64,000 bases of DNA. Source: a virus. Below, piece by piece: positions 479 to 60,910 of the stretch. Where the stretch lies: IMG/VR virus record IMGVR_UViG_3300044625_001067, positions 33,473 to 97,472 of that record. The stretch is one strand, 5' to 3'. The notes under the pieces were generated by a model. That model did not search any database and was not told the origin of the DNA. It saw only the letters and a list, made by a program, of their open reading frames with translations. Within the stretch, counting starts at the first letter, position 1. Every line of letters starts with the position of its first letter. The translations under genes and the position numbers were made by a program.

Positions 479-883
479 ATGAAAAGCAAAGCCCCGATGA
501 TCTACGCCACCGCCGCTCGCTCCCCAATCGCGCACATCCTGGGCGGGTCCCAGTTCACCGCAGAACCTTGCGACTCTCCCGCAAAACAGCGGAGGCAGTG
601 GTGGGACGTGTGTGAGCGCCCAGACCAAGACATTTGCCTTGAGGACGGCGAGTTTCAGCTTTCCGGACCGCACGGCTTCCGCAGAATCGCACGGTTTACA
701 GGGCGAATGCGCTGGGTCAACTCCCACACCTGCGCCCCCACAGTCGAAGTCTTCGATGTGGAAACGGTAGTTGCAATGGTTGGTGACCTGCCTGTGATCC
801 TGGGGTGCCGAGGCGAGCGCATCAAGGGAACCTGGTGGACTCACTGGAATGCTGTGAACCACGATGTTGTTGCCTTGCAGTGA
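479..883 (+). CDS. hypothetical protein (134 aa)
   Basis: ORF 479..883 begins 3 nt after a copy of the intergenic element (398..476). No motif recognised. Confidence 0.5.
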   Translation: MKSKAPMIYATAARSPIAHILGGSQFTAEPCDSPAKQRRQWWDVCERPDQDICLEDGEFQLSGPHGFRRIARFTGRMRWVNSHTCAPTVEVFDVETVVAMVGDLPVILGCRGERIKGTWWTHWNAVNHDVVALQ

Positions 884-1344
884 AGAACGTGAAAGTTTTC
901 CTTGACGATGAAAGGCCCACGCCAGACGGCTGGGTCCGTGCCTTCACAGCTCCTGAAGCCATCGATCTTCTTAAAACCGGAAAGGTTACACAACTTTCCC
1001 TTGACCACGACCTTGGGCCGGAAGACGCAGGAACTGGATACGACGTTTGCCTGTGGGTGGAAGAGAAAGTCTTCTCTCAAGACTTTTGTACTGAGGACCC
1101 TTTTACACCTCCAATCATGAGTGTGCATTCCGCCAACCCTGTTGGCCGGCAACGAATGGAATTTGCTATTCAAATGATTTACCATCACTTCAAGGTTACT
1201 CAGCCTGTGGTGTGGGACTCCTTTAAGGAAACCCTCCAAGAGAAGCGACGTAGCGGGTCCAGAGAAGCCTTAGATGCCCTTGCAAAGCTTGGCCAGGAGT
1301 CTAATGATTACGGTGATGATTACGGACCAACGACGCGAGACTGA
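883..1344 (+). CDS. hypothetical protein (GTG start inferred)
   Basis: The frame is open to 805 but no ATG precedes the conserved part. GTG at 883/892 lies right at the stop of the upstream gene. Residues KVFLDDERPTPDGW...LSLDHDLG are present. Start uncertain. Confidence 0.4.
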   Translation, partial: KNVKVFLDDERPTPDGWVRAFTAPEAIDLLKTGKVTQLSLDHDLGPEDAGTGYDVCLWVEEKVFSQDFCTEDPFTPPIMSVHSANPVGRQRMEFAIQMIYHHFKVTQPVVWDSFKETLQEKRRSGSREALDALAKLGQESNDYGDDYGPTTRD

Positions 1345-1976: not shown

Positions 1977-2456
1977 ATGAAAACCCTTAGATACACAACT
2001 ATTAACCGACAAGCCTTGGGTTGGCCATCTGGCCCGTGGGACAATGAGCCCGACAAGGTCCAGTGGCCTGACATGGCGACCGGACTCCCTTGCTTAGCAG
2101 TTCGCAACCCTCTCTCAGGGCACTGGTGTGGCTACGTTGGCGTTGCCGACGAGCACCCTTGCTTCGGCAAGTACTGGGATGACGTTCCGGGTATAGATGT
2201 CCACGGCGGGCTCACTTTCTCCGACCACTGTCAACCAGACTCCGAAGAGACAGGGATATGCCACATTCCGGGTGAGGGACAACCCGACCACGTTTGGTGG
2301 TTCGGCTTCGACTGCGCCCACTACGGTGATTCTTCACCGCAACTACAAGTTTACTTAGGTACGGAACGCCACCAAGAATACAGAACTCTTGAGTACGTGA
2401 AAGAAGAGTGCGGTTTTCTTGCACGCCAACTTTCTCACCCTATCCGACTCGCGTAA
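1977..2456 (+). CDS. hypothetical protein (159 aa, Cys/His/Trp-rich core GHWCGYVGVADEHPCFG)
   Basis: ORF 1977..2456. Conserved-looking Cys/His cluster. No family assigned. Confidence 0.5.
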   Translation: MKTLRYTTINRQALGWPSGPWDNEPDKVQWPDMATGLPCLAVRNPLSGHWCGYVGVADEHPCFGKYWDDVPGIDVHGGLTFSDHCQPDSEETGICHIPGEGQPDHVWWFGFDCAHYGDSSPQLQVYLGTERHQEYRTLEYVKEECGFLARQLSHPIRLA

Positions 2457-2457
2457 A

Positions 2458-2823
2458 GTGGAAAAGAATCTTCTCGACGCTTTTAACCTTGAAGAGTACG
2501 ACTACGAAGTCGCCTTTGAGTTTCGCGACTCTAGCTTCTTTCGCCGACTTTTCACTCGCAAAAAAGATTTCTTGGTGTATTACATTCGCCGAGTGCCGAA
2601 GATTGCGTCTGACCCGGCGAAAGAGAGTCAGGGGGAGAAGGTTCTATCGCACAGGTACAGTTCTCAGGATGGCGAGAAGATCTATGCCTTTGGCTCAGTA
2701 AATGACAAATGGGATTTTATGTACTGGGACACATCAGACGAACCTCAACAGTTACTCATGAGAGTATGCCTGAAGCTTCGGCTCTCAAGCGACAACGTTA
2801 CATTTTCTACCGCGACTCACTAG
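2458..2823 (+). CDS. hypothetical protein, tandem paralog A
   Basis: GTG at 2458 immediately follows the upstream stop (ORF track frame opens at 2419). Clear paralogy to 2850..3230 (YxVAFEFR(D/N)SxF(F/L)RRL(F/L)TRKxDxLxYYIRR...NVTFST). Confidence 0.5.
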   Translation: MEKNLLDAFNLEEYDYEVAFEFRDSSFFRRLFTRKKDFLVYYIRRVPKIASDPAKESQGEKVLSHRYSSQDGEKIYAFGSVNDKWDFMYWDTSDEPQQLLMRVCLKLRLSSDNVTFSTATH

Positions 2824-2849
2824 AGTTTGCAGCACACTGAATTAAAACT

Positions 2850-3230
2850 TTGACAATGGTAAACGTACCACTCAGTAATTTTGATTTCGACCGCTACAAC
2901 TATGTGGTAGCATTTGAGTTTCGCAATTCGGGGTTTCTTCGTAGGCTTCTCACTCGAAAGAGTGATCACCTGTTGTACTACATTCGACGGGAATGCAAGC
3001 TGAAATCTCAAAACCAAGACGGAGAGGAAATCCTGTCCAGCTACTTCACTCTTGAGTATCTTGAGAGATACGTTTGTTTCCTGTCGCGAGAGGAGGACAA
3101 CTACAAACCCCTATACTGGAACAATCCCACTGAACCTCAGGAGTTTCTCACTCGACTGTACATGAAACTCAAACCTTCTCAAGACAACGTTACTTTTTCA
3201 ACCTCAAGCCTCAGTTTCACGGAACAATAA
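2850..3230 (+). CDS. hypothetical protein, tandem paralog B
   Basis: ORF 2850..3230 shares about 40% identity by eye with 2458..2823. Confidence 0.5.
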   Translation: MTMVNVPLSNFDFDRYNYVVAFEFRNSGFLRRLLTRKSDHLLYYIRRECKLKSQNQDGEEILSSYFTLEYLERYVCFLSREEDNYKPLYWNNPTEPQEFLTRLYMKLKPSQDNVTFSTSSLSFTEQ

Positions 3231-3242
3231 TAGCATAGCAGT

Positions 3243-4025
3243 ATGGCACACACTGACACCCTTGGAGACCTTCTTAAGGCTCAAGAACAGGCGGAAGCGG
3301 GGCGAAAAGCCGACCCGTTACTCCCCCTTATGGCACGTATCGACGGTAGCTGCTTCAGTGCTTTCACCAAGGGGCTAGAGCGACCATTTGACGAGCGATT
3401 TGTGCAGTTAATGATTGAAACCACCAAGTTTCTCGTTGACAAGAGTGAAGCCCAACTCGGTTACTGCCAAAGTGATGAAATTACATTGTTCTGGTACCTC
3501 GACAAGGAAAATTACTCGAACAGAGAGCTGTGGTTCGGTGGCAAGTTTCAAAAGCTGACCTCGATCCTGGCCGGCTCCGCATCGTCATACTTTAGTGCGA
3601 ACATTCCAAAAGTTCTGCATGAAAAGCAAGGGTGCTATCCCGTGTTTGACGCGAGAGTGTGGAATGTCCCGGACTTAGAACACGCATACCTAAACTTTGT
3701 CTGGAGACAACAAGATGCGCAGAAGAACTCCGTATCCATGTACGCTCGCCACTTCTTCTCCCACAAGTCTCTTCAGGGCAAAACCTGCCGAGAAATGAAG
3801 GGAATGCTTGCCGAAGTCGGAAAGCCATGGGAAGAACTCCCTAAGTTTTTCACTCACGGAACGTTCGTGCGAAGGCAGCGCCGTCTTGTCAACCCCGAGG
3901 ATCTTGTTGGCATTCCCGAGAAGTACCGCCCGACCAAGGCAATCGTTCGCACTGTTGTTGAAAAGTGGGAGCCTTATGGGGAACTTTCCTTGAGCGACTT
4001 TGCTCCTTGGGCTTTTGCTCGGTAA
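3243..4025 (+). CDS. tRNA(His) guanylyltransferase-like protein (Thg1-like 3'-5' nucleotidyltransferase)
   Basis: Three motifs align with the human Thg1 sequence recalled from memory: MARIDGSCF vs VRLDGRNFH, CQSDEITLF vs GQSDEYSFVF, and FDARVWNVP...VWRQQDAQKNS vs FDGRVVVYP...SWRQADCHINN. The 260 aa length is typical of Thg1 and Thg1-like proteins. Confidence 0.7.
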   Translation: MAHTDTLGDLLKAQEQAEAGRKADPLLPLMARIDGSCFSAFTKGLERPFDERFVQLMIETTKFLVDKSEAQLGYCQSDEITLFWYLDKENYSNRELWFGGKFQKLTSILAGSASSYFSANIPKVLHEKQGCYPVFDARVWNVPDLEHAYLNFVWRQQDAQKNSVSMYARHFFSHKSLQGKTCREMKGMLAEVGKPWEELPKFFTHGTFVRRQRRLVNPEDLVGIPEKYRPTKAIVRTVVEKWEPYGELSLSDFAPWAFAR

Positions 4026-4190
4026 CGGACTCATATGGGAAATCACCCTGAGCGACTTTGCTCCTTGTGCCATTGCGCTGTAACGGATTCACCCATGAAA
4101 TGTCCCTAAGCCACTTTACTTCCTGAGTCCCTTGCGCTATACTGATTTCACCTGGGAATTTACTCCTGAGTCCCTTGCGCTGTAGCGGAG
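3985..4190. repeat. ~58-bp imperfect tandem repeat array (about 3.5 units)
   Basis: The unit ccttgagcgactttgctccttg...gctcggtaacggactca recurs at 3991, 4049 and 4107 (period 58), with a partial unit of period ~43 at 4166. The array spans the 3' end of the Thg1-like gene and the spacer before tRNA-Gly. Confidence 0.7.
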
Positions 4191-4206
4191 GCACCGGCAA
4201 ACCAAT

Positions 4207-4278
4207 GCGAGTGTAGTTCAGCGGTAGAACGTTAGCTTCCCAAGCTAAATGTCGCCGGTTCAAGTCCGGTCACTCGCT
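4207..4278 (+). tRNA. tRNA-Gly (anticodon CCC)
   Basis: A cloverleaf folds by hand. Acceptor stem gcgagtg/cactcgc. D-arm gttc-agcggta-gaac. Anticodon arm ttagc-ttCCCaa-gctaa. T-arm gccgg-ttcaagt-ccggt. Confidence 0.85.
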
Positions 4279-4304
4279 CTCTTTCCCGCACAGCAAATAT
4301 CTTT

Positions 4305-4736
4305 ATGCAACCTTCAAACGAAGACCCCAGCTCAGTGGAAAAGATTGAAAAGGAAGTTATTGAGTTCTTGAACACAAAGGGAGGACGTGCAAAGCTTCGT
4401 GAAGTTCAAACTAGGTTTGAGCAGGAAACAGTGAAGTCCATTCAAAACCTCACAGTCGCACCGGGGTCTGTAGTTCTCGACATGATTGCAAACAACAAGC
4501 TTTGTCTCAATTCCGATTGGGAAGTTGGTGTTAGACCCACTATTCCCATAAGCACGGCATCACCCAGGTACGTAACAACTGGGAGTTTTTCCGTGCGCAA
4601 CGATATAAACTGCCCACGCTGCGATCTTCAGCATGTCGACCGGGGCGACTGGGCCAAGAGACTGCACAGGAAGCACCTCTGCGAACGGTGCGGCTGCATC
4701 TGGCAGCCTGAGGACGGGTATAGCTTCGGAATCTGA
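4305..4736 (+). CDS. hypothetical protein with C-terminal Cys4 zinc ribbon (CPRCD...CERCGC)
   Basis: ORF 4305..4736. Two CxxC pairs near the C-terminus. Confidence 0.5.
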   Translation: MQPSNEDPSSVEKIEKEVIEFLNTKGGRAKLREVQTRFEQETVKSIQNLTVAPGSVVLDMIANNKLCLNSDWEVGVRPTIPISTASPRYVTTGSFSVRNDINCPRCDLQHVDRGDWAKRLHRKHLCERCGCIWQPEDGYSFGI

Positions 4737-4760
4737 CCCTAAGTGTTCAATTCAGTGAGC

Positions 4761-4812
4761 AGGGCGGTTACCCGCCTTTACCTTTCCGGGAGAAGGCGGT
4801 ATGATTATAAGG
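4761..4812 (+). promoter_or_regulatory. intergenic element copy
   Basis: agggcggttacccgcc, cctttccgggagaagg and cggtatgattataagg. Confidence 0.5.
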
Positions 4813-4834
4813 TAACCAGTTTCGGTCCGGTCTG

Positions 4835-5536
4835 ATGGCTTCTTCCTCAAAAGTTCTTGACCTTGTTCGTTACGTTGGGCAGACCTTGTCGGTTAAACGA
4901 AGGAATGGCAGCATCGTCTCCTTAAGAATTTCAGCTTCAACTAGTAACCCCCTTTACCCCTTCCAAGACTCCTCCGGAGGATTTTACACCCCTGAAGGGT
5001 GCACCTTCTTTGGCCAAAGGTCTCCCGACGATATTGTGAAGATTCTCGGTATCAGGAAACCGGGAATGGGTAGGACTGAGCTTAGAGATTTTATTTCCCA
5101 GACCGAAGAGTATGCGAGACAACTTAAATTGGAATTGTCTCGCCGGGAGTCTTGCCCAACTTTACAGGAAGCCTCAGAAGGTGATGTACTTGAAGATGAC
5201 TCCATTGTTCTCCTCAAGTGTGCTAACAACGCAATACTCGTATCCCCCTCATATACAGAAACCGAAGCCACATGGAGTGATACTTTTCTGGAGCTGAATG
5301 ATTCCCTAAAGGAGGGTGGATTTAATCCTTCTGAGTGGTTTGTACCCTCCAAGAGCCTTCTTCACTTGGCTATGGCGACCCATAGAAGGTTTTTTGAAGA
5401 ATCATGGTATTGGAGTTCCACTGAGTATGACGACACCAGGGCAGAGGCTGTGGACTTTAGGGATGACGGAAGCTACGAGCTTCACCCAAAGACCTATAAA
5501 GGTTCCGTTCGTGCCTTTCGCTCCGTCTACTTTTAA
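4835..5536 (+). CDS. hypothetical protein (233 aa)
   Basis: ORF preceded by an element copy at 4761..4812. Confidence 0.5.
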   Translation: MASSSKVLDLVRYVGQTLSVKRRNGSIVSLRISASTSNPLYPFQDSSGGFYTPEGCTFFGQRSPDDIVKILGIRKPGMGRTELRDFISQTEEYARQLKLELSRRESCPTLQEASEGDVLEDDSIVLLKCANNAILVSPSYTETEATWSDTFLELNDSLKEGGFNPSEWFVPSKSLLHLAMATHRRFFEESWYWSSTEYDDTRAEAVDFRDDGSYELHPKTYKGSVRAFRSVYF

Positions 5537-5556
5537 CCCCCGAAAGCCCTAAACCA

Positions 5557-6219
5557 ATGGTAGACCCTGCACAAACTGACTTGTTTACTGCCCCGGTGAC
5601 TTCAGACTATCAAGTAAAGACCCGCTGGGGTTTCATGGGGTTCGAGAATCAGTATTGGGATAAGACAAAAATAGGGGAGATAATCACACTTTCCGGACCG
5701 CGAGTTGATGTAGATCACAAGAGAAAGAATACGTTTAGTGGGTATATTCTTGACCTAGAGTTTCTTACTTGCGAGGATTATAGCAGGGTTCAAGGGGAGT
5801 GGACAGCGCCGAAACACATGGATTGCGCTATTGCAACTATGTGGACTTTTAAGGGAACCGCCGCTAGACGTAAAATGACGACACTACTTAAAAGTGGGCT
5901 TGGCATTGGCGTCTCAATTGAGCATGGCGGTAGAAAGCCTAAAAGAACCATAGGTCCTTGCATAACAGTCACCCATTGCCCCCAAAACCACGATGCATGG
6001 GTTATAACTGGAGCCATCGCAGGAAAGTTCTACAGCAATTTGTATCCAAAGAACAAAACACTTCCGGACTCAGTTTTGAACTGTGCACGGGAGCAATACG
6101 AGAAGCACGCTAAACAAGTGTTTCATACACGTGGGAATAGAGATTTCATTCGTGCCCAGCTAGAGTGGGAACCTGGCGGGTCTTACTACAAGTTGTTAAA
6201 TCCACCCTGTCGAGGGTGA
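5557..6219 (+). CDS. hypothetical protein (220 aa)
   Basis: ORF 5557..6219. No motif recognised. Confidence 0.5.
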   Translation: MVDPAQTDLFTAPVTSDYQVKTRWGFMGFENQYWDKTKIGEIITLSGPRVDVDHKRKNTFSGYILDLEFLTCEDYSRVQGEWTAPKHMDCAIATMWTFKGTAARRKMTTLLKSGLGIGVSIEHGGRKPKRTIGPCITVTHCPQNHDAWVITGAIAGKFYSNLYPKNKTLPDSVLNCAREQYEKHAKQVFHTRGNRDFIRAQLEWEPGGSYYKLLNPPCRG

Positions 6220-6250
6220 GGTTAGTCGGGTACGGTCAACCGCACCCCTG

Positions 6251-6298
6251 AAGGCGGTTACCCGCCTTGCCTTTTCCAGGAAAGTAAGGCATAATTAA
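6251..6298 (+). promoter_or_regulatory. intergenic element copy
   Basis: aaggcggttacccgcc, cttttccaggaaag and gcataattaa. Confidence 0.5.
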
Positions 6299-6326
6299 CG
6301 AGAAACTGAACGATGGCCCTCGAACA

Positions 6327-6590
6327 ATGAAGTCCACATTTTACGTGAAGAACGAAAAGGTTGAGAGCACAAAAGCTCTCGTTCGCCAACACGCAACTCT
6401 AAGATTTCTACAAAACCCTTTACAGGTGGGTTCCTCAACCGAATTCTGCTTAGAAGGCGATGTCAAAGACTTTAATTCTCTCAACGTTATGCTGGAGGAG
6501 CTAAACGTCGAAGAAAAACCAGAACCAGGGAGCTTTGTTGAACATTTCTGGTCAGTTGTAAGGGGTTCCCCTCGCAATCGCAACCTGTGA
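6327..6590 (+). CDS. hypothetical protein (87 aa)
   Basis: ORF preceded by an element copy at 6251..6298. Confidence 0.4.
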   Translation: MKSTFYVKNEKVESTKALVRQHATLRFLQNPLQVGSSTEFCLEGDVKDFNSLNVMLEELNVEEKPEPGSFVEHFWSVVRGSPRNRNL

Positions 6591-6669
6591 TTGCCGCAGA
6601 AACGGTTAGCCGGCCCCATCCGTTAGGTCCTTTTTCGGCCTTTGCAAGTAAACACGTCATTCTACTAGC

Positions 6670-6933
6670 ATGGACATTAAGTCACCCTTGACTGACATAG
6701 GCTTGCGTAACTTGGCTCACGCACCCCGTCCCACTGCGGCAAGGGCTCGAAAGCAGATTAGAGAGATTAAAAAAGGGTCCGGCGTGTCTGTGAACGATTG
6801 GACGTTTAGAGGTAACATGAAGTACTCTATAAACTGCGGAAGTCTAGAAGACACTTCTACAGCCGTATCTTGGCTGAAAGAGAAGAGTATTGCTGTTCTT
6901 GAGTGCCCTAAGATACTTGACGCCACAGCATAG
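6670..6933 (+). CDS. hypothetical protein (87 aa)
   Basis: ORF 6670..6933. Confidence 0.4.
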   Translation: MDIKSPLTDIGLRNLAHAPRPTAARARKQIREIKKGSGVSVNDWTFRGNMKYSINCGSLEDTSTAVSWLKEKSIAVLECPKILDATA

Positions 6934-7054
6934 GGCGACGGATGGATTGCTTATTTGGTTAGACCTATAGCGTGAAGGCGGTTTCCTGGCTTGTTTGCTT
7001 GGGGGACTCCCTCTGACAACCCTGCGGCACTCAAGTCGAATTCTCCCGCCCAAC

Positions 7055-7135
7055 GGGGCGGTTACCCGCCCTTTTGCCCCTCGGCGAAACGGGCTATAGT
7101 AAAGGAGTGGTTGAGAGCTTCGCTCCTCGCCCCCC
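7055..7135 (+). promoter_or_regulatory. intergenic element copy plus a conserved downstream leader (aaaggRgtggttgagag..cttcgctcctc)
   Basis: ggggcggttacccgccc, ttttgcccctcggcgaaacgggc and tatagtaaaggagtggttgagagcttcgctcctcgcc. A partial copy also lies at 6973..6997. Confidence 0.55.
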
Positions 7136-7313
7136 TTGCGAAACGAACCTCGAAAAGATCGCGTCTTTGTAAAAGACCTAAGTAGCATACCCCACGAATG
7201 TACCTCGTTAGTCGTGCTTGGCGGGTTAAGCGTAAATGCTTCCGTAAGCTGGGGAAAGGGCTAGGACAAATTGCTACTACAATGACGCAATCTTCGAGAC
7301 TTCGCCAAGGGGC

Positions 7314-7395
7314 AAGGCGGGAAACCGCCCTTTACTCCCCTAGCCAAACAAGCTATAGTAAAGGGGTGGTTGAGAGAGCTTCGCTCCTCACTCTT
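7314..7395 (+). promoter_or_regulatory. intergenic element copy whose palindrome loop is inverted (gaaa rather than tttc/ttac) while TATAGT keeps the + orientation, followed by the conserved leader
   Basis: aaggcgggaaaccgccc...agctatagtaaaggggtggttgagagagcttcgctcctcac. Confidence 0.55.
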
Positions 7396-7747
7396 TCCCC
7401 GGTCTCTCCGGGGGCAACTTGAAAATTTAAGATTTACACACACTGGTGAGTACACAGGTTGGGGTACGACCAAGTGCTACCGTGGTCGGGCTTTTACCCT
7501 GGTAAGGGGTGAAAGAGTTGGTAGCAGCCAGTGTTAAGACCAAAAGGTTAACGAGAGAGAAAGATCACGGTTCGAGTCCGGATCCAGCAGTAATTGAGCC
7601 CGTCAAGGGCATTCCTAGCCATGGTTGCGGGGTAGTTTAAGTGGCCTAAAAACATTCTCTCTTTTACCCAGGGGACAATGGCGGTCGCGGCTAACGCCAA
7701 GTGCGACTAAGCCACGTCTCATGACCCCGGTTGATCCCGGGGTATAC

Positions 7748-7821
7748 GCTGCAGTAGGCGAATTGGTTAAGCCGCCAGACTTTCAATCTGGAAATTACGG
7801 GTTCAAACCCCGTCTGCAGTA
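7748..7821 (+). tRNA. tRNA-Glu (anticodon TTC)
   Basis: Acceptor stem gctgcag/ctgcagt. Anticodon arm ccaga-ctTTCaa-tctgg. T-arm acggg-ttcaaac-cccgt. Confidence 0.8.
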
Positions 7822-7829
7822 TGACCCTG

Positions 7830-7872
7830 TGGTTTAACCCATGGGGCACCCTGTGGTTCAACCCGTAGGGCA
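7830..7872. repeat. 22-bp tandem direct repeat (x2) immediately 3' of tRNA-Glu
   Basis: ccctgtggtttaacccatgggg is followed by ccctgtggttcaacccgtaggg. Confidence 0.7.
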
Positions 7873-7950
7873 AATCCACCTTGCCTCTACAGATCGGGAG
7901 ATAGCATCAAAACGAGTCATCGTGGAAGAGGGAAGAACTCGGTGGGTTCC

Positions 7951-8076
7951 TGACTAAGAGTGTTAGAGGTTAGCATGTTCCTTTGGGCGAAAACAGTAAG
8001 ATAGAACGAAGGCCAAGTTCCGTATCTGTGAGTAGTTTTGACAGAGGAGGTTGAGGTTCGAATCCTCGTTAGTCAC
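7951..8076 (+). tRNA. tRNA-like gene, non-canonical length (126 nt between perfectly complementary acceptor strands; possible insertion or intron)
   Basis: T-arm tgagg-ttcgaat-cctcg with the 3' acceptor strand ttagtca at 8069..8075. The only complementary 5' strand, tgactaa, lies at 7951..7957. The interior was not resolved by hand. Confidence 0.3.
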
Positions 8077-8222
8077 TTGCCCCTCGGCAACAGGGTGCTT
8101 CGTTATGCCCTGACCATCAAACATAACGCCGCTTCTCGTGACGGTAAGATCGAGACTCTGCATCCCTGAGTAACGGGACGCTTAATGTTTGTCGGACAAA
8201 CATCCTTGGCAACTCAACAGGT

Positions 8223-8319
8223 TAAGACGTTGCGAGTCACAGCTGGTAACTGTGACAGGGGACAAGTCTGGTTGACGTTCTGTGCACAAGAACCACGGGT
8301 TCGATTCCCGGCGTCTTCG
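8223..8319 (+). tRNA. tRNA-like element (T-arm cggg-ttcgatt-cccg). The 5' boundary is uncertain and the element contains a 7-bp hairpin gtcacag-ctggtaa-ctgtgac.
   Basis: The GGTTCGATTCC T-loop and the acceptor-like pairing taagacg/cgtcttc carry a 1–72 mismatch. No canonical D-arm was found. Confidence 0.3.
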
Positions 8320-8344
8320 TTGGTTTGCTTTCGCAAACCCTTAC

Positions 8345-8393
8345 TTCCGCTCTTCTGAGGCCGAAAGCCACGGGGTTCGAATCCCGGCGGAAA
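8345..8393 (+). ncRNA. tRNA-like minihelix (acceptor-like stem plus T-arm only, about 49 nt) preceded by a 7-bp hairpin ggtttgc-tttc-gcaaacc
   Basis: ttccgc(8345-50) pairs with gcggaa(8387-92) and flanks gggg-ttcgaat-cccg. No D-arm or anticodon arm fits. Confidence 0.25.
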
Positions 8394-17530: not shown

Positions 17531-18253
17531 CTAGTCCTTGCGAGGTTGCCGTGAAAATTGGTGAAAAGTATTTTGAGTGACGTTGTAAGCGGTTAGGCGA
17601 CCCTTCGTCTTAATAAACGCACCCGTATCTATATTTACGCGTTGTCCCGTCACAACGGGAAGGTGGTCCTGAGGTGGTTCCTCGAAGTTGGTTGGTGTGT
17701 GACCATGAACGACTTTCTTCAGTCGTGGGTTCCACCCTTCGAACTCCGGCCCGTATCTCAGAAAAGGTTGTCGAATCCACAGGAGTGCCTCGCCTCTCCC
17801 ATCGACAATGAGCTTTGCAGGGTCGTGGCCAGGGTACACCCCTGCGTGAATGAAAAGGGTATCTCCAATTGTCATATACAAGGGTAGATTTCGAATCCAC
17901 TCCTTATGTTCCCTCTCCATGTCACCCACTTGGTCATAGTTTCCCCCGTTTCGAATCCACAGAACGTAACTACTTGGGTCGTCAAGGGCGTCAAGAAACA
18001 TCCTCTCGTGGTTCCCCATCAGGGCATAAAAGGCTTGAAGCCCCCAACTTTCCGGATCGTAGAGGAGCTTTTTCGTATACTCCAAAACTTTCAGGTCGCC
18101 CCTACCACGATCAATCATGTCACCTAAAAGTATGACGGTGGCTTGAGACCCTTTCACCCAATTTAGAAATTGTTCGAAAAGAGTCCAGGTCGCGTGAATG
18201 TCCCCCAGAGCAACTACGTCCCCCGGCTGTATTTTGTTGTCGTAAGTTATCAT
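17531..18253 (-). CDS. calcineurin-like metallophosphoesterase (Ser/Thr-phosphatase or ApaH-like)
   Basis: Motifs VVALGDIHA (GDxHG), LLGDMIDRG (GDxxDRG) and GNHE. Start placed at an internal Met (18253) abutting the kinase gene. Confidence 0.7.
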   Translation of the reverse strand: MITYDNKIQPGDVVALGDIHATWTLFEQFLNWVKGSQATVILLGDMIDRGRGDLKVLEYTKKLLYDPESWGLQAFYALMGNHERMFLDALDDPSSYVLWIRNGGNYDQVGDMEREHKEWIRNLPLYMTIGDTLFIHAGVYPGHDPAKLIVDGRGEALLWIRQPFLRYGPEFEGWNPRLKKVVHGHTPTNFEEPPQDHLPVVTGQRVNIDTGAFIKTKGRLTAYNVTQNTFHQFSRQPRKD

Positions 18254-18257
18254 CTTG

Positions 18258-18719
18258 TCAGTATATGAAGTCAATACGGTGGAAGGGTTCGTTGATATTC
18301 TTAAGGGAAGCTTGTAAGGAGGCGTGCATGCGCTCAATCACTTCTTCCGGAACCCTACGCTCGCGAGAAGCATTCTGGCGCAGGCAAACGGTGAGGGGCT
18401 TGTCAAGGACAACAGCGGTGATTTTGCAGTAACCGTACGAGTTTAGCATAGCAACTGCTTCCTTGCGGTAAGCTGCCTTGTAGTGGGTACCATCCATAAC
18501 TATAGTCCGACCTACACTCTCCTCCAGAATCTCAAGCATGCGGTCGTGGATTTCTACGTAATTTCCTTGAATGTCCGCGTTCCCGTAGAGCTCAGCGCGG
18601 ATTTCATCGCCGGAAATTACAACGGCATCTGGGTGAAGCTCTAGTAGCTTAGCCACATGGGTTGACTTTCCGGAGCCAGGGGCACCGACCATCACGTATG
18701 CTTCGAGGTTGTTTTCCAT
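18258..18719 (-). CDS. polynucleotide 5'-kinase (P-loop) homologous to the kinase domain of T4 Pnkp
   Basis: P-loop VMVGAPGSGKST vs T4 Pnkp LTIGCPGSGKST. ISGDEIR vs T4 INRDDYR, which holds the catalytic Asp. 153 aa, kinase domain only. Confidence 0.7.
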   Translation of the reverse strand: MENNLEAYVMVGAPGSGKSTHVAKLLELHPDAVVISGDEIRAELYGNADIQGNYVEIHDRMLEILEESVGRTIVMDGTHYKAAYRKEAVAMLNSYGYCKITAVVLDKPLTVCLRQNASRERRVPEEVIERMHASLQASLKNINEPFHRIDFIY

Positions 18720-18794: not shown

Positions 18795-19016
18795 TTAGCT
18801 TTTGGTCTCAGACCGGAAAAAGTTATACTCTTCAACCCACTCATGAAGAGGGTCCTCATTCACAACGTCCCCACTGTTGTTCACATAGTCTTGAACCACC
18901 CAGGCAATCTCTCTAAACTCCAGGTCGTTCCAGGGCCATGACGCACCCACTTTGACGCCAGGGCAGCCCTTAAGCAGACTCCTTAACTTTTCTTTGAGCT
19001 TTTCGGAACTTTTCAT
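18795..19016 (-). CDS. hypothetical protein (73 aa)
   Basis: ORF 18795..19016. Confidence 0.35.
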   Translation of the reverse strand: MKSSEKLKEKLRSLLKGCPGVKVGASWPWNDLEFREIAWVVQDYVNNSGDVVNEDPLHEWVEEYNFFRSETKS

Positions 19017-19473
19017 TGTTTCTCAAGAGTGTTGCAAGTTTTAAAGCGTACCTGTTCCCCTGAAAAGGTGCAGGGTTTTTGCCTTGGTCTAAAACCTTTC
19101 TCAGCGCCGTGCTCGAACCACTTCGTTCGTTCCCATGAAAAGAGACTCCGAAGGTGTGCGAAAGCTGCAATCCGAGTGAAGCTTGGTCGGACCCCAGAAC
19201 GAGAACCACCTCGCTTGGCTTCCTGCTTTTTAGAACATCTGACAACCCCGCATAGGGATCGATGGCCTTTAGAAATGATACCCTACTCAGGTCAATGCTC
19301 GCTTGGCGGCACAGCGTCCGCAGAAGTAAAACTCGAAGGTCCCAGTCGTTGTTCTGTCTCCCTAAGGACACATAAACTTTAGCGGTCGAACCAAGGGTGA
19401 GCAACTTTTTAACTAGCTCAACATGGCCGGGGTGGCCTATGTTAAACCTCCCGAACGTTACAGCGGTTTTCAC
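18970..19473 (-). CDS. cytidylyltransferase-fold nucleotidyltransferase (NMN adenylyltransferase / PPAT family)
   Basis: (H/T)xGH motif GRFNIGHPGHVELV. C-terminal SGSSTALRKV resembles the ISSTxIR motif of NadD/CoaD-type enzymes. Confidence 0.55.
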   Translation of the reverse strand: MKTAVTFGRFNIGHPGHVELVKKLLTLGSTAKVYVSLGRQNNDWDLRVLLLRTLCRQASIDLSRVSFLKAIDPYAGLSDVLKSRKPSEVVLVLGSDQASLGLQLSHTFGVSFHGNERSGSSTALRKVLDQGKNPAPFQGNRYALKLATLLRNNEKFRKAQRKVKESA

Positions 19474-37373: not shown

Positions 37374-38507
37374 ATGAGAAATTGCTACACATACAGAGTG
37401 GGTTGGTCCCGGTTCAATAAGTACTACTACGGAGTTAGATTCGCCAAAGGATGTCACCCTGCTGACCTTTGGGTTGCCTATTTCACCAGCTCCCGGCATG
37501 TAAAAGCATTTAGAAAAGTTCACGGGGAGCCAGATATCCTAGAAGTGAGAAAAACTTTTGGAGACGAACCTAAAAAGGCAGCCGAATGGGAACAAACTGT
37601 TTTACGAAGACTAAACATAGAGTTCAACGAACTATACTTAAACAGAAGCCGAAAGAACGCTTTCGGGGCCAAGGGGGCGCCATGGAATGTGGGTAGAACC
37701 AAGGAGAATTGCCCCGTGACACATTTAACTGCGGAGAAGATTAGCAAGACTAGAAAAGGTTTTAAAGCCTCAGAAGAAACTAAGAAGAAACTGTCTATGG
37801 CTGCAAAGGGAAGAGCCGAAGAAAATTCCTGGAAGCAGCTATTAAAAAGTCCAGCAATTAGAAACAGATTTCACTCCTATAAACATTTCTTAGTTGAGAT
37901 AGAAAACCTATACGAGTCTTGTTGGGGTATCGCGGAGGTCATTTCAAAAGCCCTGGGAGTAAACGTCAGAGGCGTTGCTAAAGCCCTAGAGCGCCTAAAT
38001 CTGACTTCTTTGAACGACCAGCAGAGAACTAAAGTGTATAATAAGTACGGGAACAGGTTCTCTAGTTACAGCGACTACTGCATAAGTATCTTGGTTTTAC
38101 ATCTCAAGGGCTACACTCCCAGTCAAATTGGTAGTCAGTTGGATGTGAATGAATGCGGAGTGGGGAACCTTCTTCTCAGGGTTGATTTAACCCCAAACAA
38201 GGCCAAAACGGGACCGTCAAAGCCCGCTTTTAAGAAGGTACTGATTGCTGATGCTCTTGAAGCTAAAAGCACCACATTCACTCTTGAAGACAATCCCCTC
38301 CCGGAGAGTCTTATTGTTAAGTTGAGAGAAACCGTCTGCCATACCGAGGATCTCTTCCACACCCATATCCTTTATAGAGAAGCTTCCCAACACAGGGACG
38401 TGGCCCAAACCAAATTGATCGCAAAAGTTTTTCCTTTCCAGGGGGGTCATGTACCTCCCCATATCCGTAAGGTAGACATCAAAAACAAAGAACTTGAAGT
38501 CATTTAG
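37374..38507 (+). CDS. GIY-YIG family homing endonuclease with NUMOD-like motifs. It lies on the opposite strand to its neighbours, and the C-terminal ~95 codons run antisense over the 3' end of the RNA ligase gene.
   Basis: N-terminus CYTYRVGWSRFNKYYYGVRFAKG resembles GIY-(~10 aa)-YIG. KASEETKKKLSMAAKGR resembles the NUMOD3 motif H(S/T)EETKxKIS. Confidence 0.55.
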   Translation: MRNCYTYRVGWSRFNKYYYGVRFAKGCHPADLWVAYFTSSRHVKAFRKVHGEPDILEVRKTFGDEPKKAAEWEQTVLRRLNIEFNELYLNRSRKNAFGAKGAPWNVGRTKENCPVTHLTAEKISKTRKGFKASEETKKKLSMAAKGRAEENSWKQLLKSPAIRNRFHSYKHFLVEIENLYESCWGIAEVISKALGVNVRGVAKALERLNLTSLNDQQRTKVYNKYGNRFSSYSDYCISILVLHLKGYTPSQIGSQLDVNECGVGNLLLRVDLTPNKAKTGPSKPAFKKVLIADALEAKSTTFTLEDNPLPESLIVKLRETVCHTEDLFHTHILYREASQHRDVAQTKLIAKVFPFQGGHVPPHIRKVDIKNKELEVI

Positions 38508-39296
38508 CTTGTAGATGTTTTGCTGGATTTTTGGGCCTACAACTTCTCCCTGTACAGCCACATTGTCAAACCCTGCAGTCTTCAGTTTTTCTTCTAGATT
38601 GACTTTTCTAGCGACGGACCAATAAGTGTTATTATTATCCTCTTTTAGGTCTAAGTTACGGGAGCAAACTCCGAACTCTCCGTTGTTAAGGTACATCGTA
38701 CAAGATGTACCCTCTAGTTTCTCCGTAACTTCGTATACAACATTCTTGTATTCCCCCAGTTTGTCGTATAGAGATTGAACTCTCGGCTGATCCGTTTTGG
38801 TAATGTAGCTCGGGAAGTTTCCACGAACTTGTCCCGCAAGGCAAGCGGGGACCGGAGCTTCCCACTTCTGAATGCCAAACTCTAGAGTGAAGTCTTCGCC
38901 TTCTTCCCACACACACTCGTCAACTCGGAGAGATCCCCTCCCCCCATAAGGTTCGGCTAGCGAAACAACGTAGAAGCTTGGAGAGATGTCTGAGAAGCGA
39001 AGTAGGAGACCCTGGGAGACTTGGCCACGGAGCCGGACGGTTTTCAACCTTTCCCCCTTCACTCCATTGTACTCCCTTGGTTCCTTCCCCTTGGACAAGA
39101 ACGGGGCAAGTTCATGGGGGATCCACGAGTCAATCTCGAAATAGATTGCAAGATCACCGGCTTGGAATTCCCCTCTCTTCACGACAACGGGCCAGCCACC
39201 ACCCACGATGGCGCACTCAATTGCGTCGGCGTCCGGGATTGGGCGAATCTCCGTTACTTGTCGGACGGAGGCGAGTTTGCGTTCGATGTTTGCCAT
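38217..39296 (-). CDS. ATP-dependent RNA ligase-like nucleotidyltransferase (N-terminal beta-rich domain followed by an adenylyltransferase domain; Rnl5/DraRnl-like or Rnl2-like)
   Basis: Covalent nucleotidyltransferase motif I-like EKLEGTS (KxDG-class lysine). 359 aa. Not resolved to family by eye. Confidence 0.5.
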   Translation of the reverse strand: MANIERKLASVRQVTEIRPIPDADAIECAIVGGGWPVVVKRGEFQAGDLAIYFEIDSWIPHELAPFLSKGKEPREYNGVKGERLKTVRLRGQVSQGLLLRFSDISPSFYVVSLAEPYGGRGSLRVDECVWEEGEDFTLEFGIQKWEAPVPACLAGQVRGNFPSYITKTDQPRVQSLYDKLGEYKNVVYEVTEKLEGTSCTMYLNNGEFGVCSRNLDLKEDNNNTYWSVARKVNLEEKLKTAGFDNVAVQGEVVGPKIQQNIYKLNDFKFFVFDVYLTDMGRYMTPLERKNFCDQFGLGHVPVLGSFSIKDMGVEEILGMADGFSQLNNKTLREGIVFKSECGAFSFKSISNQYLLKSGL

Positions 39297-52197: not shown

Positions 52198-53310
52198 TCA
52201 GGCAATCCCGAGCAAAACGTCGAGCTTTTTCGGGGTTAAACCTTCGAGCCACTCTGCAAAGGATCCGACTTTGCCGGATCGAATCGCAAAGCATGCTCCA
52301 GAAAGTTCTTTTGACTCGGCAAGTACGGCTTGAGCGAAATCCTTCTGGTTAAGATGGTTGTGAGCCCTCATGTTCTCGCTCACCGCACTCTCCATCACTT
52401 CGATGGAACGCAGGTGAACGTCAAAACCCCCACGATACTCGGGAAAGTGAAGCAGAAACTCTTCCAAGTCGTCGTTCAGGAAAAGCTCGGAGAAATCCGG
52501 TTCGCCGTTTCCTTTAACCCTGTGCAACTGGCAATATACGTTGGACTTGTCTTTCTGCCGGTTTCCCTTCCCATCGACAATAATCACTCCTTCAGCGGTA
52601 CCACGAGAAGAGTCGTTTACAAACTGGGTTACAGCTTCATGTGAGCGCAGGTCGTAGGTCTGAGCGATATTGAATCGGTTCTCAAAGTACTTGAGATCCT
52701 TTTCGTTCAGGTCATCTATTACGCTACGGACCGTTAAGAGAGGTAAAAGGGGAGTCTCGTAGTCTACAACAATTTTGTTGTCTTTGTGGCACAACTCGTA
52801 GACGTAGACAAAATAAGGGTCGAGGTCAGCCCGGTCATATTCAACTTCATTAAAAACGTGCCAAAACAAGTCGGAGAAGGAGCGGCCCGTGGTCCCGACT
52901 TCTGAAGAACCAGCGACTGAACCTGATGTTGATACCAACCACTCTCCTTTATAGTTGAACAACTTGATCAGAGACCCGTCGTACTTCTCAGCTACACGGG
53001 CAGTGGACCAATCAATCTCTGCGGCGTAACCCTCCCCGACGTTGAAGAAACGGTCGAAGGCGTACGCAACCAGCCGAAAGTACGGGGAGCCCGTACCATC
53101 GTCAACGAGTTCGACTACGGCACCACGGCAGGCACGAACGATCGGCAGTGCCTTGTCCGCCATCACACTGCCGTACTTTAAGTTGTAGAGAGCAGGGTAA
53201 CGTTCGTCGCGAGCAACACGAATGTCGTGCTCGGCAAGTGCTTCAAAAGCAGTCTCGACCCGGTAGTTTAACCAGTCGATTAGAAAGTGGCGCAGGTTTA
53301 AAGGTTCCAT
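52198..53310 (-). CDS. RNA ligase 1 (T4 Rnl1 / gp63 family)
   Basis: Motif I EKYDGSLIKLFNYKGEWLVSTSGS vs T4 Rnl1 [24 protein letters not shown]. N-terminal RACRGAV vs T4 ECRGIMF. The T4 sequence is recalled from memory. Start placed at Met41 (53310), giving 370 aa against T4's 374. Confidence 0.75.
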   Translation of the reverse strand: MEPLNLRHFLIDWLNYRVETAFEALAEHDIRVARDERYPALYNLKYGSVMADKALPIVRACRGAVVELVDDGTGSPYFRLVAYAFDRFFNVGEGYAAEIDWSTARVAEKYDGSLIKLFNYKGEWLVSTSGSVAGSSEVGTTGRSFSDLFWHVFNEVEYDRADLDPYFVYVYELCHKDNKIVVDYETPLLPLLTVRSVIDDLNEKDLKYFENRFNIAQTYDLRSHEAVTQFVNDSSRGTAEGVIIVDGKGNRQKDKSNVYCQLHRVKGNGEPDFSELFLNDDLEEFLLHFPEYRGGFDVHLRSIEVMESAVSENMRAHNHLNQKDFAQAVLAESKELSGACFAIRSGKVGSFAEWLEGLTPKKLDVLLGIA

Positions 53311-53365
53311 GGCAGCTTTAGGTGGGTGGGACCGTTGAGTTTTGTTTATCTGGGCAAGGTTGGGA

Positions 53366-53995
53366 CTAGCGATTTCGTTTCCCACTGTCCCAGGCTGGCG
53401 CTGATCTCCGCTTTGGAAAGTCATGTCCAAGATCGCCTTTTACTTCCCCGTTAGCGAGGACAACAAGGTGGTCTGTGCCGTAATCGTCCCAGTCGTCGGA
53501 GAACTTCGTGTCTACTGACAGAGTAACCTTGTGCTTGTAAAGAACTTGGCCGAGATCCTTTCTAAACTCGTCCATGTCGAACTTTTCGCCAGGGGTGTAC
53601 GCGTAGGACGTAACTACTTGGTCTCGAAGGAGCTGGTCCCAGTCGAGGCAGTTGTACGGGAGTTTTGTCTCTGACATGTCTTCCGGGGAGAAGCAGCTTC
53701 GTAGTGTTCTGTGATTACGCCGTTCATTCGTCCAGGTTCGATCCTCACGGACTCTTACCAGAGTGTAGCAGTATGAGGATGGAACGTTCGGGTTCGTTGC
53801 TTTCGGGTGCATCCAGATGTCGGACACAACGTAGAGACCGTCTTTTACTGGACTCTTCCGAAAGTGAAGGTAAGGAACTTCAGTGCCCCAGGTTCGACCG
53901 TCGGGTGAATTTTTAAGTATTTTTCCAGGAACAAACACACTGTCCCCTGGCTTCAGCAAAAGTTTTCCTGTAACTGATTCAGGGGGAGACTTCAT
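53366..53995 (-). CDS. hypothetical protein (start trimmed to MKSPPES)
   Basis: ORF 53366..54046. The N-terminal 17 codons overlap the element at 54022..54084. Confidence 0.45.
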   Translation of the reverse strand: MKSPPESVTGKLLLKPGDSVFVPGKILKNSPDGRTWGTEVPYLHFRKSPVKDGLYVVSDIWMHPKATNPNVPSSYCYTLVRVREDRTWTNERRNHRTLRSCFSPEDMSETKLPYNCLDWDQLLRDQVVTSYAYTPGEKFDMDEFRKDLGQVLYKHKVTLSVDTKFSDDWDDYGTDHLVVLANGEVKGDLGHDFPKRRSAPAWDSGKRNR

Positions 53996-59395: not shown

Positions 59396-60910
59396 CTAAG
59401 CTGCGGGGTTAAGAAGTCGAGTACGAATGTTAGGCAGTGAGTTTACATCCTCCCCGTAAACCACGCTGTTTAAGAACACGGTGCGAAGCTCGCCTCGCTG
59501 CTCTTGCTCACGAGTCTGCTGTTGATGAAGAACAAAGTTCTCCCCATCCTTTTCAACTCGCAGTAGACCCAACGCCGACTTTTTCGTGCCGCGATCCGTA
59601 ATGGGATCCTTCATGGTTTCGACGGCGAGACCGTTAATTTGCCCCCAGGTTGTTTTGTAAGCAATACCGAACGTGTCTCGTGTATGGTATTGGTAGGTGT
59701 AAGAACCGATACCAAACACAATGTTTTCGGACGCCCACCCAAGCTGCCTCATGTGCTCTAGGATGGCCCTGGCCCGTGGAAGAGTGATTGAGTCGCCGTA
59801 AATTAGGCCAACTCGAGGGTTCAGTACCTTGAAACCCTTCTCGTTTATCGTTCCTCCGAAGACCTCCCAGAGAAGCTCAAGCGAGCCTTTGTACTCTCGG
59901 CTACCTAGCTCAGCGTCAGCGTCACCGCAGATGATTTTCTCAGGGTTACCGCTGTCGGGACGGAAGACGACCTTAGCGATGCCCTGAGAATTCGGACAAC
60001 GATTTAAGATGTCTTCCTTAAGTGCGGGTGCAATAACAGTCAGTGCATCCCAGTAGTTCCAAGTGTCAAAAACTACACTGACCGGCCCAGTTGGGTATAC
60101 TTTTGTAATAATTCGACGAATTGTCTCTAATTCGTTTCTTTGACCGCCAAGGCAGGTCACACTGTGTTCCGTAGCGGGAATACTACCACCAATGAAATTG
60201 GACCCACAATCGTAGTAATCTTCCAAGTAGTCAATGGAAAGGATTGTATCCGTGCCCTTGAAAGAAAAAAGGTGTCCGATATTGTGTGCAGCGGCATCGT
60301 AAATGCCTCCGACTCCGCGAGCGGAGAAGTCGTGCCCCTGAAAGTCAACAAACTGCGGATTACTCCCTGTGATTTCAGCGTAGTGGTCGAGAAGACGGCG
60401 AAACTCGTAGGCGATGGTTGCCACGTTGATGGCCTTCCACAGCTCAGACGACTTGGCGGTTTCGACATAGTTGGTTAGCCACGGGGCCAGCCACTTGAAG
60501 TCATTGTGAGTGTTTTGCGCCGTCAAAAACGGCACTCCAATGTTAACACGGCTACCCTCGGGCAGTGCCTTCACATGTAGCGGCATGTAGCCCAGGTCGT
60601 GAAGCTCAGCAATGTGGTCAGTGCCGACAACACCTTCTCCGAGCGAGGAGTCCATTCGCCGCTTGTATTTGTCCAACACCTTGGCCTTGGGTTGCTGAAA
60701 AAAGGTCTCATTCCAAAGATCCCTCAGCATCCATTTCATTGTCCCCTGGATGTTGGCCACGACGATCTTGTGGTCGAAGTCAGCGGGCATGTTCGCCAGA
60801 CGGTCGGACCTTGCCGTCATGTTGGCGTAGATTACTTCGGTGCCTTCAGGGTTTTGCGAAGGGTGTCCTGTCTTGTAAAAGTCGGTTGCGTGGGGCGCAA
60901 AAATTTTCAT
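59396..60910 (-). CDS. nicotinamide phosphoribosyltransferase family protein (NAMPT/NadV, or NARP1 Namat-type nicotinamide ADP-ribose transferase)
   Basis: 504 aa ORF recognised as NAMPT-family from the translation. It is translationally coupled by a 4-nt overlap to the PRPP-synthetase-like gene. Confidence 0.75.
   Translation of the reverse strand: MKIFAPHATDFYKTGHPSQNPEGTEVIYANMTARSDRLANMPADFDHKIVVANIQGTMKWMLRDLWNETFFQQPKAKVLDKYKRRMDSSLGEGVVGTDHIAELHDLGYMPLHVKALPEGSRVNIGVPFLTAQNTHNDFKWLAPWLTNYVETAKSSELWKAINVATIAYEFRRLLDHYAEITGSNPQFVDFQGHDFSARGVGGIYDAAAHNIGHLFSFKGTDTILSIDYLEDYYDCGSNFIGGSIPATEHSVTCLGGQRNELETIRRIITKVYPTGPVSVVFDTWNYWDALTVIAPALKEDILNRCPNSQGIAKVVFRPDSGNPEKIICGDADAELGSREYKGSLELLWEVFGGTINEKGFKVLNPRVGLIYGDSITLPRARAILEHMRQLGWASENIVFGIGSYTYQYHTRDTFGIAYKTTWGQINGLAVETMKDPITDRGTKKSALGLLRVEKDGENFVLHQQQTREQEQRGELRTVFLNSVVYGEDVNSLPNIRTRLLNPAA

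Follow-up and report, generated by a model that had tools for sequence, protein, structure and literature searches.

The stretch of viral DNA analysed here (IMG/VR record IMGVR_UViG_3300044625_001067, positions 33,473 to 97,472; 64,000 nucleotides, in the following referred to as the window) encodes a Thg1-like protein (TLP) in an ATG-to-stop open reading frame (ORF) of 260 amino acids plus stop at positions 3243..4025 on the + strand. The ORF is a real member of the Thg1/TLP family, its active site is intact, and its subtype motif is that of a TLP. Based on these features, the predicted fold and the genomic context, we consider it probable, at roughly 0.7, that the gene product is a catalytically competent TLP of the bacterial (repair) type, which would carry out anticodon-independent, templated repair of tRNA 5′ ends. 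A preliminary description of the same DNA, made from the letters alone, had proposed a phage-encoded Thg1-like 3′-5′ nucleotidyltransferase at this position, and this identification is supported by the searches and alignments reported below.

Family membership, active site and subtype of the phage TLP

A search with the profile PF04446 (Thg1), named as a check in the preliminary description, gave a strong match to the ORF (E 3e-25; 89.1 bits compared with a gathering cutoff of 29.2), spanning ORF residues 18-143 and profile positions 8-130 of 130. PHROG 4717, named 'tRNA-His guanylyltransferase', matched the ORF at E 2.3e-67, and NCBIfam contained no model naming TLP. Among solved structures compared by sequence, BtTLP (4kgk) was closest with an E-value of 8e-30 over ORF residues 5-209, far ahead of any Thg1: the match to Candida Thg1 reached 1.6e-8, those to human and yeast Thg1 were at about 2e-4, and the eukaryotic Thg1 proteins altogether ranged from 1.6e-8 to 3e-4. 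The archaeal MaTLP was matched at 3e-5.

An AlphaFold2 (AF2) model of the TLP was built on an alignment of its homologs and reached a mean predicted local distance difference test score (pLDDT) of 90.4 and a predicted template modelling score (pTM) of 0.88. When this model was compared with the PDB by Foldseek, matches 1-32 were all Thg1/TLP entries, headed by BtTLP (4kgm; E 3e-18), to which 234-240 columns were aligned. Only Thg1/TLP entries were obtained at E≤1e-10, and the next fold was that of adenylyl cyclase at E 5e-3. According to the model, both the polymerase-like palm fold and the C-terminal tRNA-binding part are present in the phage protein.

Individual residues were compared in two alignments. 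Alignment 1 comprised the phage TLP and 29 metagenomic relatives with 47-88% identity, while the 7-way alignment comprised the phage TLP, its homologs from CcrColossus, RsoM2USA and 201phi2-1, and segments of BtTLP, MaTLP and CaThg1. All three Thg1 signature blocks noticed in the preliminary description were found again, namely RIDG with D34, QSDE with S77, D78 and E79, and WRQQDAQKNSVSM. The RIDG motif (3336..3347, + strand) includes R32 and D34 and is invariant in both alignments. D34 is the first metal-binding carboxylate, with the equivalents D30 in BtTLP and D29 in hTHG1, and R32 is the counterpart of BtTLP R28, a ligand of the nucleoside triphosphate (NTP) phosphates. The likewise invariant SDE motif within QSDE (3471..3479, + strand) provides the activation-step residue S77 (compare S75/76 of ScThg1) as well as D78 and E79 as second and third carboxylates, equivalent to S74, D75 and E76 of BtTLP; the three carboxylates D34, D78 and E79 correspond to D29, D76 and E77 of hTHG1. 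The metal-binding aspartates, the alignment of which had been recommended earlier, are thus present and invariant. Neither of the outcomes named beforehand as refuting the identification, a missing Thg1 profile match or missing aspartates, was observed. D34, D78, E79, E15, R32, S77, K104, R138 and R155 do not vary among the 30 sequences of alignment 1, and they are also unchanged in the 7-way alignment, in which the position of E15 is not covered by the fragments of MaTLP and CaThg1, as both begin further downstream. E15, K104, R138 and R155 map to E12, K99, R131 and R147 of BtTLP, and the invariant residues R32, K104 and R138 belong to the nucleotidyl-transfer site (compare ScThg1 R27, K96 and R133). 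The roles of D30, D75 and E76 as metal triad, of the NTP-holding residues and of S74 have been described for BtTLP (PMC3701042).

One position of the active site deviates from BtTLP. R47 (3381..3383, + strand) occupies the place of the lysine by which ATP is positioned for the activation step (BtTLP K43, ScThg1 K44). Of 30 close relatives, 29 have arginine there, as do the phages RsoM2USA and 201phi2-1, whereas BtTLP, MaTLP, CaThg1 and CcrColossus carry lysine. Because the K43A exchange in BtTLP lowered adenylylation about 10-fold and left guanylylation unchanged (PMC3701042), R47 may shift the nucleotide preference in the activation step.

The third block, WRQQDAQKNSVSM (3702..3740, + strand), is the TLP-type version of the Thg1 block WRQxDxHINNLYN. 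In the 7-way alignment it resembles WRQQDASKNSISM of BtTLP, unlike the CaThg1/Thg1 block WRQVDCHINNLY: KNSVSM stands in place of HINNLYN, and M166 corresponds to BtTLP M158, which has been mapped to the position of N161 in ScThg1 (PMC3701042). Judged by its sequence, the motif is of the TLP (repair) type and not of the eukaryotic tRNA-His type.

This motif bears on the question of whether the protein might be a true tRNA-His guanylyltransferase adding G-1 to tRNA-His of the phage or its host, as the family name and the annotation of many phage records say. MaTLP also adds G-1 to tRNA-His lacking it, in a second, anticodon-dependent mode (PMC4820378). Eukaryotic Thg1 (yeast, human and Candida; PDB 3OTB, 3WBZ, 5XOX and 7CV1) has the palm fold, the two-metal site and the NTP-binding residues in common with the phage TLP. 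It differs in adding a non-templated G-1 to tRNA-His and reading the GUG anticodon, in possessing the HINNLYN sequence absent from the phage TLP, and in a similarity to the phage protein far below that of BtTLP. Also the gene content speaks against such a role. The 64-kb window yielded no tRNA-His gene, and in a neighbourhood survey of 80 viral TLP loci (L001-L080), for which the ORFs were clustered, tRNA-His occurred within 10 kb of the TLP gene in only two loci (L072 and L073, the latter with a tRNA-His gene that precedes the TLP gene by about 300 nt). Both of these tRNA-His genes encode G-1 opposite C73; an encoded G-1 is retained by bacterial RNase P, and therefore no enzyme is needed to add it. 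We regard G-1 addition to tRNA-His as unlikely.

Besides the catalytic core, the AF2 model contains a predicted long β-hairpin at residues 207-242 (3861..3968, + strand) with strands 207-216 and 234-242, and its residues R211 and R236 are invariant in alignment 1. MaTLP of Methanosarcina acetivorans (PDB 5AXK-5AXN) performs templated 5′ repair and binds tRNA independently of the anticodon via acceptor stem and elbow, with a hairpin carrying the conserved R215 touching the T-loop phosphates (PMC4820378). By comparison with MaTLP R198-R215, the hairpin of the phage TLP is a candidate reader of the tRNA elbow. The two proteins are alike in fold (Foldseek E about 1e-13), although their sequence similarity is weak, the phage hairpin is longer, and phmmer pairs R236 with MaTLP R216, one residue off the conserved R215. 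BtTLP (PDB 4KGK/4KGM; PMC3701042) is the best match by both sequence and predicted fold, sharing the carboxylate triad, the equivalents of R28, E12, R131, R147 and S74, the methionine at position 158 and the motif WRQQDAxKNSxSM. Differences from BtTLP are the overall identity of only about 35%, R47 instead of Lys43, the longer β-hairpin and C-terminal region of the phage protein (260 compared with 245 amino acids) and the location of the phage copy among tRNA and RNA-repair genes.

Proposed role in tRNA 5′-end repair

According to the two-step mechanism described for TLP homologs (PMC4820378, PMC3701042), the phage TLP would activate a 5′-monophosphate RNA end with ATP or GTP, or directly take a 5′-triphosphate end, and would subsequently add nucleotides in 3′-to-5′ direction by two-metal catalysis. 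Watson-Crick pairing with the 3′ strand of the acceptor stem of the tRNA would guide the addition, which would halt once this stem is complete. The anticodon probably plays no part in the choice of substrates, which would involve acceptor stem and T-loop elbow; host tRNAs, the about 20 tRNAs of the phage, and tRNA-like RNAs would therefore all be served by the enzyme.

The TLP would be one stand-alone tool within a tRNA-maintenance kit of the phage. RNA ligases and Pnkp activities had been listed in the preliminary description, and the window indeed encodes, all on the − strand, a Pnkp-like P-loop kinase (18258-18719) matching the kinase module of bacterial Pnkp, an adjoining metallophosphatase (17531-18337), a second phosphatase (33217-33954) matching the Pnkp phosphatase module, a DraRnl-type RNA ligase (38217-39296; TIGR02306, 198 bits, above cutoff) and an Rnl1-like ligase (52198-53430). 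The + strand ORF at 805..1344, which precedes the TLP gene, codes for a protein with a cREC (cyclic-phosphate-processing receiver) domain (PF20274, E 2.9e-26), and a function in RNA repair has been predicted for cREC (PMC7824862). In such a kit, the kinase would convert 5′-OH into 5′-P ends, the metallophosphatases and cREC would remove 2′,3′-phosphates, and the two RNA ligases would complete the set. A close relative (L172; TLP 89% identical) carries cREC about 2 kb and a CCA-adding enzyme 6 kb upstream of its TLP gene; together with this enzyme, the kit could mend either end of a tRNA.

Enzyme activity and substrates of the phage TLP are inferred by us from these similarities, as is damage inflicted during infection as the lesion to be repaired. 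Of the earlier proposal that the phage rebuilds tRNA 5′ ends, the repair type holds with respect to sequence, fold and motif shared with BtTLP, while 5′ damage caused by the host had been overstated. The source of this damage is the weak point of the repair function: a host nuclease leaving 5′-truncated tRNAs was not found in the literature, and the tRNA-targeting host defences found described there cut other parts of the molecule, namely the D-loop, the loop or stem of the anticodon arm, the 3′ acceptor strand (retron Eco2) or the CCA tail (Cas12a3 and HEPN-MNT).

Several further observations weigh against a function in repair. The second profile recommended in the preliminary description, PF14413 (Thg1 C-terminal domain), did not match the ORF, although the C-terminal half aligns to BtTLP and MaTLP by sequence and in the predicted fold. 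The lysine of the activation step is replaced by R47, a conservative change. A tRNA gene is located within 10 kb in only 24 of the 80 TLP loci, and the TLP gene of 201phi2-1 has no annotated tRNA gene within 4 kb on either side. The proximity to tRNA genes, taken as a clue in the preliminary description, is therefore real at this locus but represents a modest and lineage-limited trend. Also, the TLP gene has no conserved operon partner, since the commonest neighbour family is limited to 10 of the 80 loci, and no biochemical study of any phage TLP was found in the literature.

What bacterial-type TLPs do physiologically has not been settled so far, and the locus, which combines an intact active site, a natural K-to-R change, a nearly complete healing and sealing kit and odd tRNA-like genes, is a clean candidate for studying a phage TLP. 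If phage TLPs repair tRNA 5′ ends in infection, hosts must damage 5′ ends in some still-undescribed way or, alternatively, the phages must make errors in processing their tRNAs; in both cases the arms race around tRNAs would gain a new axis.

Genomic neighbourhood and distribution of TLP genes

The TLP gene is part of a + strand block at 1-12.1 kb of the window. Its adjacency to tRNA-Gly(CCC), reported in the preliminary description, was verified: the tRNA gene was detected by ARAGORN and Rfam (71.3 bits) at 4207..4279 on the + strand, 181 nt downstream of the TLP stop codon. It is co-oriented with the TLP gene, its acceptor stem is normal with G1-C72, CCA is not encoded, and no terminator-like site was seen between the TLP stop codon and the tRNA. 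At 3991-4200 (+ strand) there is a tandem repeat of about 58 nt with 2.2 scored copies and degenerate further copies, which begins inside the last TLP codons and reaches the tRNA-Gly gene; one of its units contains a promoter-like site TTTACT-17-TATACT. This repeat is absent from the relative locus L001 (TLP 69% identical), where the order of TLP gene and tRNA-Gly(CCC) is kept. Directly upstream of the TLP gene, two tandem paralogous ORFs of 134 and 126 amino acids (2419-2823 and 2850-3230, + strand) are 45% identical to each other (E 2e-31) and gave no match in Pfam, PHROG or PDB. In L172 and L001, too, homologs of these ORFs immediately precede the TLP gene.

Co-oriented tRNA genes within 7 kb are present in five of the six closest loci from IMG/VR, in four cases downstream of the TLP gene, and the sixth locus ends about 200 nt after it. 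In another close relative (L170; TLP 80% identical), EF-Ts, an AlaX-like fragment and the peptidyl-tRNA hydrolase PTH2 are encoded nearby. In this lineage, the TLP gene tends toward neighbourhoods of translation and RNA-repair genes. Across the 80 loci, 146 of 148 tRNAs near TLP genes were co-oriented, with only a mild excess 1-6 kb downstream.

The most frequent neighbour families in the survey were Acb1 (10 loci), PF09414 ligases (5-6), cREC (4) and Ro-like proteins (2). A fixed multi-gene system was rejected because even the best of these families is present in only 10 of 80 loci; the TLP gene is therefore a stand-alone, mobile accessory gene and not part of a fixed system. Acb1 acts against CBASS (cyclic oligonucleotide-based antiphage signalling system), and its rank as most frequent neighbour could hint at a function of the TLP elsewhere, on other structured RNAs such as Ro-like partners, on cap-like App- or Gpp-RNA ends, or in anti-defence nucleotide chemistry. 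The palm domain which Thg1 has in common with GGDEF and Cas10/mCpol cyclases (PMC2904730, PMC12657218) would fit such an activity, as would the Ro-like homologs with 61% identity that L005 and L006 encode at a distance of 2-4 kb from their TLP genes. However, the neighbour associations are weak, cyclase folds match the model only at E≥5e-3, and the protein is conserved with repair TLPs over its full length, including the tRNA-binding C-terminal part. We consider a function of this kind very improbable.

The phage TLP family is already catalogued, and the gene described here is an ordinary find which adds one more member. The preliminary description knew of no characterised phage homolog; this holds insofar as no biochemical study was found, but the family as such is known. 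By tblastn it was detected in 157 GenBank phage records, mostly of jumbo phages and with identities of ≤47%, many of which already carry the annotation tRNA-His guanylyltransferase (e.g. 201phi2-1 gp319 and CcrColossus gp300). The 201phi2-1 protein was included in the work of Anantharaman, Iyer and Aravind (2010; PMC2904730), in which RNA repair in jumbo phages is discussed, and Iyer et al. (2021; PMC7824862) interpreted family members of jumbo phages as RNA repair enzymes. The novelty had therefore been overestimated in the preliminary description. The annotated homologs (PHROG 4717; 201phi2-1 gp319, CcrColossus gp300, RsoM2USA gp183, GAP32, CBB, BcepSaruman and others) belong to one family with the TLP of the window, with 38-47% identity over >80% of the length, and those of RsoM2USA and 201phi2-1 show the same K-to-R change. 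They differ in context, as the adjacency to tRNA genes is a trait of the uncultured lineage studied here and not of the whole family.

In total, 3360 homologous proteins were found at E≤1e-5, and relatives are encoded on at least 579 IMG/VR contigs. Relatives with 65-98% identity keep every catalytic residue and are known only from metagenomic, phage-like contigs, and an identical TLP protein is present on 14 metagenome contigs, one of them sized 0.2-1 Mb. A nucleotide search with positions 2000-12000 of the window gave no match in GenBank phages; the phage is a giant phage of an uncultured lineage. A single-protein search of GTDB genomes found neither a close cellular relative nor a prophage, and in an alignment search of GTDB species genomes the nearest cellular TLPs were those of Myxococcota and Planctomycetota with ≤51% identity. 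These proteins (e.g. of Nannocystis, Archangium and Gemmata) are 40-51% identical to the phage TLP over nearly the full length, unlike the clade with 65-98% identity, which was seen only in the phage-like contigs mentioned above. The TLP of Myxococcus xanthus is said to have been characterised as a repair enzyme by Rao and co-workers (Rao et al. 2011).

tRNA cluster, tRNA-like genes and further elements of the window

The non-canonical tRNA-like genes of the region and a 109-nt RNA are less ordinary features than the TLP itself. Altogether, the window contains about 20 tRNA or tRNA-like genes. The cluster of about 19 tRNA genes announced in the preliminary description is real, but it consists of 10 canonical tRNAs at 7748..11334 (+ strand) and about 8 interspersed tRNA-like genes, all of them candidate clients of the TLP. 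The tRNA-like genes lie in an ORF-poor tRNA block (7365-11400, + strand) at 7951-8076, 8223-8319, 8327-8395, 8627-8704, 8772-8838, 9986-10059, 10577-10650 and 10742-10815, all on the + strand, and have a good T-arm and acceptor stem with aberrant bodies. Among their peculiarities are a 53-nt insert, a 9-bp 'anticodon' stem and an 8-nt anticodon loop. Mismatches at 1:72 occur in three of them, namely A.A in 8772-8838, U.U in 10742-10815 and U.C in 8223-8319. The gene at 9986-10059 resembles a real tRNA-Ala(UGC) with G3.U70 that is missed by standard tools. Several of the tRNA-like genes are 85-88% conserved in L001, and similar genes are annotated as 'tRNA-like stable RNAs' in the tRNA cluster of phage T5, which provides a precedent.

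These genes raise the question of whether the TLP serves in routine maturation or editing of the non-canonical tRNAs and tRNA-like stable RNAs which the phage itself encodes, possibly also of Ro-like partners. In that case, a missing or mismatched 5′ nucleotide would be removed and a Watson-Crick 1:72 pair rebuilt, with the 3′ acceptor strand as template for the 5′ end rewritten by the TLP. The three tRNA-like genes with a 1:72 mismatch speak for this reading, recognition of acceptor stem and elbow would accept aberrant anticodon arms, and a mitochondrial tRNA as repair substrate of BtTLP offers a precedent (PMC3701042). On the other hand, the mismatches affect position 1 alone and never positions 2 or 3, and many TLP-bearing loci lack a nearby tRNA. 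A G1.U72 pair was present in 4 of 12 tRNAs of the window and in 42 of 160 tRNAs near phage TLP genes, compared with 2 of 23 in phage T5, for which no Thg1-like gene is annotated in the 49 kb examined. Since the G.U excess is concentrated in the related loci L018, L020 and L027 and is not significant against a single control phage, this count was not treated as evidence. We judge such a maturation or editing role to be doubtful, with about the same small chance as G-1 addition; if true, it would be a viral counterpart of the tRNA 5′ editing in protist mitochondria, where TLPs act.

A Ro60/TROVE-like protein is encoded at 28662-30140 (− strand) with DUF2828 and DUF7788 (PHROG 850, E 3e-152). Two additional tRNA-like genes at 26382-26493 and 27293-27414 (− strand; Rfam tRNA 48.5 and 41.9 bits) have intact acceptor, D- and T-arms, inserts of 52 and 57 nt in place of the anticodon loop, and a common motif UCAGCAAUUA. 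Given their position on the strand of the Ro/TROVE-like gene, 1.2-2.3 kb downstream of it, Y-RNA-like partners of its product may be encoded here.

A 109-nt non-coding element at 7554-7662 (+ strand) is predicted to contain a T-loop-like hairpin within a closing stem, which shows one compensatory change. The element is 94-96% identical in L001 and L204, while the TLP protein of L001 is only 69% identical. It matched no Rfam family. A metagenome scan with 17-mers of this RNA gave 38 loci, of which four (L186, L204, L206 and L211) are true relatives and the remaining ones were rejected as chance matches. An E-value scan of the tRNA cluster with Rfam revealed no convincing non-tRNA family, and an HDV (hepatitis delta virus)-like ribozyme (RF02682) at 9067-9132 (+ strand) with 25.6 bits, below the gathering score, and E 0.19 was set aside.

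A promoter-like motif GCTATAGTAA was found at 12 sites in the window with ≤1 mismatch, compared with 1.7 expected, including positions 465, 1422, 7093, 7352 and 10446 on the + strand and 16240, 33959, 36332, 58358, 61869 and 62586 on the − strand. In front of several copies there is a GGGCGG-TTTC-CCGCCC hairpin together with a −35-like box TTGCC, and the sites probably mark transcription units of the phage. Outside the RNA-related functions, the window encodes a pair for salvage of nicotinamide adenine dinucleotide (NAD) at 59396-61848 (− strand), consisting of nicotinamide phosphoribosyltransferase and ribose-phosphate pyrophosphokinase, and a cytidylyltransferase-like, possibly NMNAT-like ORF at 18970-19473.

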